DNA of 64,000 nucleotides from Fidelibacterota bacterium (GTDB lineage: Bacteria; Fidelibacterota; Marinisomatia; SCGC-AAA003-L08; JACNLC01), in NCBI GenBank assembly GCA_014381725.1, contig JACNLC010000061.1, positions 2 to 64,001 of the forward strand. Direction: 5' to 3'. Both the position numbers and the translations under genes were made by a program. A model generated the notes under the pieces. The model ran no database searches and was not told the DNA's origin. It saw nothing but the letters and a program-made list of their open reading frames with translations. Shown piece by piece: positions 40,031 to 41,647 of this stretch (position 1 is its first letter; each line of letters opens with the position of its first letter).

Positions 40031-41647
40031 ATGAAAAATGTGAAAATACAACAATGGTTAATAGGCATATTTAGCGTATTGCTTATAGGAAGTCTAATGA
40101 TAGTCGCAAGTGTAGAAATTAAAAGAACATCAGGTGATTCTCACGAAATTGATGTTGATGAAATTTCAGCAAGATGTATAAAGTGCCACGAAAAAGAAAA
40201 CATAGCTGTTAAACAAGTACATGCTTGGGAAGAAAGTATGCACGCTTTAAAAGGCATTGGATGTTATGAATGTCACGAAGCTCAAAAAGATGACTTTGAT
40301 GCATTCTATTGCGAAAGTAGTGACTTATTGGTTGCACGACATCCCACACCGAAAGATTGTTCGGAATGCCACGAAAAAGAAGTCGCTGAGTTTGCTAATA
40401 GCAAACACGCACATCAATTTTGGTTATTTGCAAATGCAGACAGAGCAACATTTGAAATGCCGATTGCAACTCGACACGGATGCGAAGAATGCCACCAAAT
40501 CGGTAATCTTTGGCCTGATGGTAGTGTTGGGGAATGCGATGCTTGTCACAGTAAACACTCATTCAGTATGGAAGTTGCAAGACAACCGGAAACTTGTGGT
40601 GAATGTCATATTGGTCCGGACCATCCGCATATTGAGATTTATAATGAATCCAAACACGGAAACATTTTCAAGGCGAGAGGTAAACATTGGGATATGAATT
40701 ACAACACTACTAACAATGAAGAAATACCTTTTGAAGCACCAGTTTGTGTTACTTGCCATATGGACGGAAATGAAACTCAACCTATGACGCACGATGTTAG
40801 TGCTCGTTTGGCATGGGAATCGCAAGCACCGTGGAGTTATCGCACGGTTTGGGATGAAGAAAATTTGGGTAGTTGGGATGTAAAACGCGGTAGAATGGAA
40901 GCTATTTGCAATTCTTGTCACGCGCCAGATTTTGTGGATGTATATTTTCTAACGGCTGACTTGGTGAATTTGCAATACAATGAAATCCGTCGAGAGTTTG
41001 TCTATTGGACGCAAAAACTGACAGCAGACGGCACAATTGACCGTCTTGAAAAAGATGGAAAATTCTATTCCAATCCAGTTATCAGTGGTTGGGATGAAAA
41101 ACCAGAGGAATTGATGTATTATGCGTGGCATCACGAAGGTCGTCGTTTCCGTCATGGTGCACTTATGATGGGAGCAGACTTTACTCAGTGGCATGGAATT
41201 TGGGAAATCCAAGAAGATATGGTTGAACTAATTACTTGGGCAGCAGAACACGGCGATCACGAGGCTGAAAAATGGGTTAATTCAAATGATCCTGCAAAAT
41301 TTCGCCCCTATGCATTGTATGATATTCCGGGAAATGAATGGGGTATAAATGCAAAAGCAAATACAACACCATTTGTTTATAACAATCATCCAGATTATTG
41401 GGAGCGTGTGTATAAAAATGTAAAAAAAGCATACGACGAAGGTTTGCTCACAAGAGACCAATGGAATTTGTGGTTAAATCGTTACGAAAACAAAGACCAT
41501 TTTCTTGGATTAAAGTATACAAACGATGCTAAAGTTGATTCAACTTGGAACTTTTATAAAGATAGAAATGCTATTGATAAAGAAGCATTCATCAAGCAAG
41601 CTGTTAAATTAGATTTACCGGGGAAATCATTCTACGATGATAAGTAG
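40031..41647 (+). CDS. Octahaem c-type cytochrome of the hydroxylamine oxidoreductase (HAO) family
   Basis: Eight CxxCH motifs. Blocks are collinear with HAO: CEECH..[63 protein letters not shown]. An N-terminal hydrophobic anchor or signal is present. Confidence 0.85.
   Translation: [538 protein letters not shown]

Follow-up and report, generated by a model that had tools for sequence, protein, structure and literature searches.

What does a multihaem relative of HAO do at the end of a periplasmic nitrate reductase operon, and from where are its electrons likely to come? The question is raised by a stretch of 64,000 nucleotides from a Fidelibacterota bacterium (GenBank assembly GCA_014381725.1, contig JACNLC010000061.1, positions 2 to 64,001 of the forward strand), the whole of which is called the window in the following. 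At positions 40,031 to 41,647 it contains an open reading frame (ORF) for an octahaem cytochrome c that shares 100% identity with a 'cytochrome C' in public databases, which comes from a metagenome-assembled genome (MAG) of Candidatus Marinimicrobia (Neomarinimicrobiota). A first-pass annotation, made from the sequence of the window, had taken the protein for an HAO homologue without the tyrosine that forms the P460 cross-link, had predicted that it reduces nitrite, hydroxylamine or NO, and had proposed that it is fed by an adjacent Rieske/cytochrome b (cyt b) pair and not by a quinol dehydrogenase of the NapC/NrfH type. As outlined below, a Rieske/cyt b-fed octahaem with a reductive role in the turnover of nitrogen oxides is, on the strength of sequence and gene-order comparisons, also the reading that we consider probable. 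It is essentially the interpretation published for Caldithrix abyssi in 2017, and the octahaem of the window is a further case of a known module.

With respect to family membership, the protein has exactly eight CxxCH motifs, at C49, C78, C110, C151, C169, C189, C239 and C293, as the first-pass annotation had counted, and eight are likewise found in all of 119 full-length relatives. The ORF matches the Pfam family PF13447 (Multi-haem_cyto) with E = 1.8e-22, and a search with the octahaem against all PDB sequences returned chains of the HAO family only, with E-values ranging from 2e-29 to 4e-14: IhOCC (4qo5, 2e-29), kustc0458 (6h5l, 2e-19), kustc1061 (4n4j, HOX, 4e-17), Nitrosomonas HAO (NeHAO, 1fgj/4fas, 2e-16) and HDH (6hif, 4e-14). 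When a profile of 32 family sequences was used against the PDB, the E-values of the HAO family improved to between 7e-41 and 6e-20 (e.g., IhOCC 7e-41, kustc0458 2e-26, NeHAO 3e-25), and matches to NrfA were marginal only (1.6e-3). An hhalign comparison of the octahaem family with a profile of oxidative HAOs gave a probability of 99.8%, and residues 169 to 210, the block which had been set beside Nitrosomonas HAO as a sign of collinearity, are paired by HMMER with the same NeHAO block, 22 of the 42 residues being identical. As judged from these alignments, the likeness to HAO is far beyond chance.

Membership in the NrfA/ONR, MccA or OTR families was considered and rejected, as the ORF has no CxxCK, the motif of the lysine-ligated haem in NrfA and ONR, and as neither MccA nor OTR nor ONR appeared above threshold in the PDB sequence and profile searches; a grouping with octahaem families that act outside nitrogen metabolism was thus not seen.

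HAO-family proteins lacking the cross-link tyrosine act as reductases and are without oxidative activity (PMC8042395), and the first-pass annotation had compared, by eye, the segment GADFTQWHG of the octahaem with GGWTYTEGW of HAO. The HAO segment is genuine: a search with a 243-aa NeHAO fragment yielded only partial HAOs of at most 425 aa, twelve partial oxidative HAOs that include the C-terminal tyrosine motif were combined into a profile (A2), and the oxidative HAO fragments show the motif G[WFY]TY[TS]xGW, with GGWTYTEGW occurring verbatim in P0127, P0133, P0134 and others. In local alignments to NeHAO, both HMMER and hhalign break off at about residues 314 to 357 of the query and hence short of the tyrosine region, so that global and greedy hhalign alignments of full profiles and of C-terminal slices were used instead. 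The global full-profile, the local-greedy and the global C-terminal-slice alignments all give one register, which places the HAO tyrosine opposite Gln386, F384 opposite the aromatic residue at -2, T385 opposite T and G389 opposite G. Because the per-column confidence of this alignment is low, the neighbouring columns were examined as well, and in the 119 relatives columns 383 to 389 read D (119), Y (79) or F (40), T (114), Q (112) or N (7), W (119), H (117) and G (119). No invariant tyrosine is thus found within three residues on either side of the cross-link column among the 119 full-length relatives, and the HAO motif TYT..GW was not seen in any of the 150 closest representatives of clusters at 50% identity. 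These alignments support an HAO scaffold without the cross-link tyrosine, as had been proposed, and a conserved tyrosine, which would have spoken for the opposite, was not found at the aligned cross-link position.

Tyr384, the sole tyrosine candidate in these columns, was considered as an alternative cross-linker and rejected, because a third of the relatives, including the octahaem studied here, have phenylalanine at this position, and residue 384 can therefore be no obligatory covalent cross-linker. Beside this segment lies the pair Met379-Met380 (41165-41170), of which the invariant Met379 is placed, in the global profile alignment and with low confidence, opposite an invariant histidine of the oxidative HAOs (His336 of P0121). 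Should this alignment hold, one haem of the octahaem could be His/Met-ligated instead of bis-His-ligated.

The active-site pair Asp197/His198, in turn, is aligned to the corresponding pair of NeHAO and invariant in the relatives, which argues for a catalytically competent haem 4 of the HAO type in this protein. P460 of NeHAO is haem 4, and the fourth CxxCH of the octahaem is collinear with it. Together with the missing tyrosine and the reductive behaviour of tyrosine-less HAOs, the invariance of this pair lends the predicted reduction of nitrite, hydroxylamine or NO a support that comes from sequence.

What the octahaem shares with the oxidative enzymes HAO, HOX and HDH (1fgj/4fas, 4n4j, 6hif) are the eight collinear haem motifs, the Asp-His pair and, as predicted, the fold family; it differs from them by Gln386 in place of the cross-link tyrosine, by another C-terminal domain, by a predicted N-terminal anchor in contrast to the hydrophobic tail at the C-terminus of NeHAO, and by a genomic context of nitrate reduction where that of the oxidative HAOs is ammonia oxidation. 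It is therefore very improbable that it works as an oxidative hydroxylamine or hydrazine dehydrogenase, even though JGI gives close homologues the name 'hydroxylamine dehydrogenase', the top NCBIfam match is hydrazine_HDH, and hao as well as hdh genes have been reported in Marinimicrobia MAGs (PMC8163782). With 61 bits, however, the NCBIfam HDH score remains below the cut-off of 900, so that these automated hao/hdh labels probably turn the reaction the wrong way round.

As to the source of the electrons, the octahaem gene is the last one of a tightly packed operon with the order napM-napA-napG-napD-napF/G-napH-Rieske-cyt b-hao, which is bounded by hairpins at 33452-33477 and behind the hao gene (Table). 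Three nucleotides separate napH from the Rieske gene, the Rieske and cyt b genes overlap, and 24 nt lie between cyt b and hao. The pair is recognised by the Pfam families Rieske, Cytochrome_B and Cytochrom_B_C, and the cytochrome has His88/His102 and His189/His204 as presumed haem ligands and a PEWY motif of the quinol-oxidation (Qo) site at residue 271. Serine and tyrosine in box II are typical of high-potential Rieske proteins; the box CPCHNGVF has neither of the two, which suggests a low-potential centre of the menaquinol type. The histidine spacing of the cytochrome (14 and 15) is b6-like, and a cysteine for haem ci is absent. Whereas the cytochrome is a single fused polypeptide here and in most loci of the FCB group, it is split (237 + 132 aa) in a contig of Thermodesulfobacteriota type (L082, 8839-9965).

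In the 64-kb window no NapB, NapC/NrfH, NrfA, Nir, Nor or Nos and no hcp gene was found, and apart from the octahaem just one multihaem ORF is present, that of the 127-aa NapM-like lipoprotein, whose matches are to the c3/c7 families and not to NapC/NirT (Cytochrom_NNT). Also, there is no gene for a c1/f-type cytochrome in the Rieske/cyt b operon. Operons of this kind normally include a c-type cytochrome, and it is at this place that the octahaem gene resides.

The association with the Rieske/cyt b pair extends well beyond the window. In a genome scan with one genome per species, 519 relatives were found, of which the loci of the best 80 were compared, and the Rieske/cyt b neighbourhood was counted in the 68 loci with enough flanking sequence. 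In 57 of these 68 loci the Rieske and cyt b genes lie directly upstream of the octahaem homologue on the same strand, at a constant spacing of about -1530 and -1070, respectively, and the loci with this triad span at least six phyla, comprising Marinimicrobia, Calditrichota, KSB1, Ignavibacteriota/Melioribacteraceae, Kryptonia, Thermodesulfobacteriota, a Clostridiales bin and others. The same order was seen in the gene-called contigs L081, L082, L083 and L085, and the loci without an upstream Rieske/cyt b pair mostly contain homologues of at most 54% identity from Desulfuromonadales and Deferribacterales. NapA is encoded within 10 kb in 20 of the 24 fully flanked triad loci. Where Nap sits about 7 kb downstream, as in Ignavibacteria, or is absent (L055, L062, L082; several Thermodesulfobacteriota loci), the triad is nevertheless intact, and this speaks for Rieske/cyt b being the octahaem's own partner. 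The proposed feeding by this pair and not by NapC/NrfH is thus in line both with its position across genomes and with the gene content of the window.

Given this arrangement, the octahaem is probably a periplasm-facing, reductive member of the HAO family and would form, as the terminal and catalytic cytochrome c, the partner of a dedicated Rieske/cyt b quinol oxidase. NapA would, together with NapM, NapG and NapH, reduce nitrate to nitrite in the periplasm, the Rieske/cyt b pair would take electrons from menaquinol at its Qo site, and the Rieske cluster would hand these on directly to the octahaem's seven bis-His haems. At haem 4 (C151xxC154H155), with the participation of Asp197/His198, nitrite would then be reduced, most likely to ammonium, NO or NH2OH being possible products or further substrates. 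A proton-motive gain by way of a Q-cycle may come with such a route.

Alternatively, the octahaem might not be catalytic at all, but a multihaem substitute of cytochrome c1/f in the Rieske/cyt b complex, relaying electrons to NapM and NapA. No other c-type cytochrome accompanies the pair, NapA is found here without NapB and NapC so that the small tetrahaem NapM could shuttle electrons, and the Caldithrix paper leaves a route from Rieske/cyt b to NapM possible (PMC5317091). However, the catalytic pair Asp197/His198 is invariant, NapGH is already a quinol dehydrogenase for NapA, and several Thermodesulfobacteriota loci have the triad without any Nap. As, in addition, haem 4 is open and catalytic in every structurally known member of the HAO family (PMC9250108), we regard such a relay as quite improbable.

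For the catalytic, Rieske/cyt b-fed octahaem, the closest precedent is the Nap-Rieske/cyt b-epsilonHao cluster Cabys_2564-2556 of Caldithrix abyssi (Kublanov et al. 2017, PMC5317091), an organism that ammonifies nitrate and has neither Nrf nor Nir nor any other nitrite reductase, in which the tyrosine-less epsilon-Hao was proposed to be the nitrite reductase and to receive its electrons from Rieske/cyt b, alternative complex III (ACIII) or NapM. The window resembles this cluster in the order of napM, napA, the nap genes for Fe-S proteins, napD, napH, Rieske, cyt b and octahaem, and in the locus of a Caldithrix abyssi MAG among the compared genomes (L026) the homologue is 71% identical, the Rieske and cyt b genes standing at -1546 and -1109, respectively. 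It differs in its host phylum, Marinimicrobia, a lineage of pelagic waters and oxygen-minimum zones, and while the electron route was ambiguous in the Caldithrix paper, the synteny seen here across phyla speaks for a dedicated partnership with Rieske/cyt b. Outside Caldithrix and the anammox bacteria, our literature search found no systematic description of Rieske/cyt b-Hao modules, although one may still exist.

In the anammox bacteria, the HAO-like protein Kuste4574 is a subunit of the R/b-3 complex (PMC12485887), and HAOr (kustc0458) converts nitrite to NO and is able to reduce NO and NH2OH as well (PMC8042395). Like these, the protein of the window is a tyrosine-less octahaem of the HAO family, and its association with Rieske/cyt b, which is here one of genes only, recalls that in R/b-3; kustc0458 (6h5l) is its second-best, if distant, sequence match in the PDB (1.7e-19). 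On the other hand, R/b-3 has further subunits and is located in the anammoxosome, and HAOr (Kustc0458/0457) is paired with a dihaem protein and produces NO.

The best match among solved structures, IhOCC of Ignicoccus hospitalis (4qo5), has no P460 cross-link either and is described as a nitrite reductase (PMC9250108). In both proteins PDGS(V/L)G is inserted between haem 4 and haem 5, and GxD[WYF]T..G.W takes the place of the tyrosine motif, but IhOCC is archaeal, lacks the C-terminal extension of about 130 aa described below and aligns only at residues 76-131, 149-258 and 285-399. No link between IhOCC and a Rieske/cyt b pair was found in the literature search.

The epsilon-Haos of Campylobacter, Nautilia and Caminibacter, finally, are comparable as tyrosine-less HAOs that are encoded beside nap genes, and according to Haase 2017 as cited in PMC8042395 epsilon-Haos reduce nitrite and hydroxylamine in vitro, the product of the characterised ones being ammonium. 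Among the best 80 of the 519 genome matches there was no Campylobacterota genome, for which reason the identity to epsilon-Hao should be below about 50%. In the phylogeny of the Auka study, the Campylobacterota Haos form clade II and the Tharpella homologues belong to clade I, the function of whose members is unknown (PMC9213671); going by the relatedness of the sequences, this points to a placement of the octahaem in another clade than the Campylobacterota epsilon-Haos.

Several points weigh against nitrite reduction by a Rieske/cyt b-fed octahaem. To begin with, IhOCC as the nearest solved relative and the characterised enzymes are distant from the octahaem subfamily, and the alignment at the tyrosine column is of the low per-column confidence mentioned above. 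The AlphaFold2 model of the protein has a predicted local distance difference test score (pLDDT) below 50 at residues 145-240 and a TM-score of about 0.28 to HAO structures; with this model, which is poor in the haem core, Foldseek found only HAO-family chains to be significant, with kustc0458 (6h5l) on top at about 21% identity. Canonical nrfH-nrfA genes (CWTCK) lie directly upstream of the triad in seven Ignavibacteria/Melioribacteraceae loci (L081, 6017-8161; L031, L036, L040, L042, L045 and L048), so that the octahaem is not simply a substitute of NrfA there. Judging from this gene content, the nrfHA-bearing Ignavibacteria would not depend on the octahaem for nitrite ammonification, and its substrate there may be NO or NH2OH instead. 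Nap is missing from the vicinity of the Thermodesulfobacteriota homologues (58% identity; Ca. Tharpella, L054, is among them), and for the homologues of Thermodesulfobacteriota and Tharpellota the Auka study put forward, explicitly as a speculation, a reduction of sulfur compounds (PMC9213671).

The nrfHA-bearing loci speak for a variant in which the octahaem is reductive and linked to Rieske/cyt b, but either forms NO from nitrite, as HAOr/kustc0458 does, or reduces NO or hydroxylamine and thereby detoxifies them. In one of these loci (L081), a clade II nosZ-nosL-nosD cluster lies within 5 kb of the triad, HAOr itself makes NO and also reduces NO and NH2OH (PMC8042395), a route via free hydroxylamine with Hao and Hcp was proposed for Nautilia and Deferribacter (PMC6896113), and a Tll0287-like haem sensor kinase is kept beside the module. 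We nonetheless hold this variant to be rather unlikely, since Caldithrix abyssi ammonifies nitrate with the same cluster and no other nitrite reductase (PMC5317091), since the window has no nor, nos or hcp, and since the characterised epsilon-Haos, so far as Haase 2017 is cited, yield ammonium.

The loci without Nap, in turn, bear on the question of whether the substrate might be a sulfur compound, such as sulfite, polysulfide, thiosulfate or tetrathionate, and not a nitrogen oxide. The homologues in such genomes of Thermodesulfobacteriota/Tharpellota are 55-58% identical and have the same Rieske/cyt b partners, which agrees with the sulfur reduction proposed for the Tharpellota ones. Octahaems acting on sulfur compounds do exist, namely MccA and OTR. 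The chances of this alternative appear slim, however, because a nap cluster lies around or beside the gene in the window and in 20 of the 24 fully flanked triad loci, because the Asp-His pair of the active site is of the HAO type that handles N-oxides, because similarity to MccA or OTR did not exceed the threshold, and because the hypothesis is a speculative one already in its source.

Taken more broadly, it is possible, though doubtful, that the triad constitutes a distinct and widespread respiratory 'complex III' in which cytochrome c1 is replaced by a catalytic octahaem of the HAO type, and in which quinol oxidation by an electrogenic Q-cycle would be coupled directly to the reduction of N-oxides, unlike in the electroneutral NrfHA. 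As Ignavibacteria have the triad directly behind nrfHA and Thermodesulfobacteriota have it without Nap, what it really reduces may then be NO, NH2OH or a sulfur species and not nitrite.

Marinimicrobia (SAR406) are abundant in oxygen-minimum zones. The labels 'hao' and 'hdh' in their MAGs suggest oxidations of the nitrifier or anammox type (PMC8163782), whereas an octahaem without the tyrosine and linked to both Nap and Rieske/cyt b points to the reduction of nitrate and nitrite, be it with nitrogen retention akin to the dissimilatory reduction of nitrate to ammonium (DNRA) or with NO production, and not to the oxidation of hydroxylamine. Surveys based on the marker genes nrfA, onr, nirS and nirK leave this octahaem family out. 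If the protein is part of an energy-conserving quinol:nitrite reductase, estimates of who performs DNRA and of its energy yield would change, and if it is the catalytic octahaem of a complex III, a new class of terminal reductases would be present in abundant marine and sediment bacteria. The module is widespread and ecologically relevant, and its coexistence with NrfHA in Ignavibacteria bears on what the real substrate is.

Outside the haem core, both ends of the protein deserve mention. At the N-terminus there is one strongly hydrophobic segment (residues 10 to 28 by hydropathy) with a candidate signal-peptidase site after IVA (before S), and from these sequence features the octahaem is predicted to be periplasmic and possibly anchored. 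The N-terminal helix on which the first-pass annotation had based a membrane tether is thus borne out by hydropathy and by its conservation in the family consensus, but the tether itself does not follow from it, as cleavage at this site would release the protein. The C-terminal part, from about residue 405 to residue 538 (41243-41647), forms a helical extension of about 130 aa that was modelled with a pLDDT of 85-96 and has no match in Pfam. Of the 150 closest cluster representatives at the 50% level, just two (45% and 38% identity) can be aligned from end to end with this extension included, which marks the subfamily as a compact, distinct branch; the remaining ones match the haem core only, roughly at residues 157-405. 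The extension may have a role in oligomerisation or in docking to Rieske/cyt b.

Table. Positions of the octahaem gene, of its predicted functional elements and of the surrounding genes in the window (Tat, twin-arginine translocation; TM, transmembrane; KD, Kyte-Doolittle)
Feature	Position	Strand	Remarks
Octahaem HAO-family protein, without cross-link Tyr	40031..41647	+	538 aa
N-terminal hydrophobic segment, residues about 9-28; signal-anchor or uncleaved TM helix	40055..40114	+	hydropathy KD 2.58; AlphaFold2 helix 2-34; kept in family consensus
Fourth CxxCH (C151-E-E-C154-H155), predicted catalytic haem	40481..40495	+	collinear with NeHAO haem 4 (CTMCH); invariant
Asp197-His198, aligned to NeHAO Asp267-His268	40619..40624	+	invariant in 119/119 relatives
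GADFTQWHG, residues 381-389, equivalent of HAO G[WFY]TY[TS]xGW; Gln386 in cross-link Tyr column	41171..41197	+	profile alignments
GC-rich 11-bp hairpin, 51 nt past hao stop codon; probable operon end	41698..41725	.	
Cytochrome b, 345 aa, fused b6-like N-terminal and subunit-IV-like C-terminal part	38969..40006	+	
Rieske [2Fe-2S] protein, 155 aa, Tat-like NRKEFLKK, one TM segment; boxes CTHLGC and CPCHNGVF	38505..38972	+	
NapH membrane quinol dehydrogenase subunit	37632..38501	+	
NapG/NapF-type 4Fe-4S ferredoxin, without signal sequence	37120..37635	+	
NapD chaperone	36869..37114	+	
NapG-like poly-ferredoxin, Tat-like SRKSFFKE	36288..36857	+	
Periplasmic nitrate reductase NapA, 761 aa, monomeric type, Tat-like SRKEFIK	33913..36198	+	
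NapM-like tetrahaem lipoprotein, 127 aa, lipobox LISC, 4 CxxCH	33498..33881	+	homologue in 39 loci
Alginate_exp-like outer-membrane porin	32086..33441	+	kept upstream of napM-napA in 39 related loci
Histidine kinase, periplasmic Tll0287-like (PF11845, one CxxCH) c-haem sensor domain	29858-31759	-	
Sigma-54 response regulator	28485-29861	-	divergent two-component pair with Tll0287-like kinase

With regard to the surroundings of the operon, the porin and the NapM-like lipoprotein form a conserved block upstream of napA, each being present in more than 35 related loci, and the porin could serve as a channel for nitrate or nitrite. The divergent kinase/sigma-54 regulator pair is a candidate for the regulation of the operon, and the Tll0287-like kinase may use its haem to sense NO, nitrite or the redox state on behalf of the triad module. 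Homologues of this kinase are found in 14 of the 80 related genome loci, and Tll0287-like kinases also adjoin the triad in L082 (6424-8112) and, twice, in the Clostridiales bin PH28_bin88 (L083, 4487-6169 and 20247-21554).

Downstream of the octahaem gene, a molybdenum cofactor (Moco) riboswitch (RF01055, 41717-41837, plus strand, 78 bits), the 5' end of which overlaps the hairpin, precedes moaA, and a full set of genes for Moco biosynthesis and molybdate transport follows at 41958-47175 in the order moaA-MOT1-moaCB-moeA-MOSC-mobA. In the predicted Tat substrates NapA, NapG-like protein and Rieske protein, an R-K pair replaces the canonical twin arginine, and a tatC gene is located at 62647-63393. 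Finally, a cobalamin riboswitch (RF00174, 26240-26370, minus strand, 49.8 bits) lies upstream of genes for a TonB-dependent receptor (24142-26220) and a Por-secretion-tail protein.

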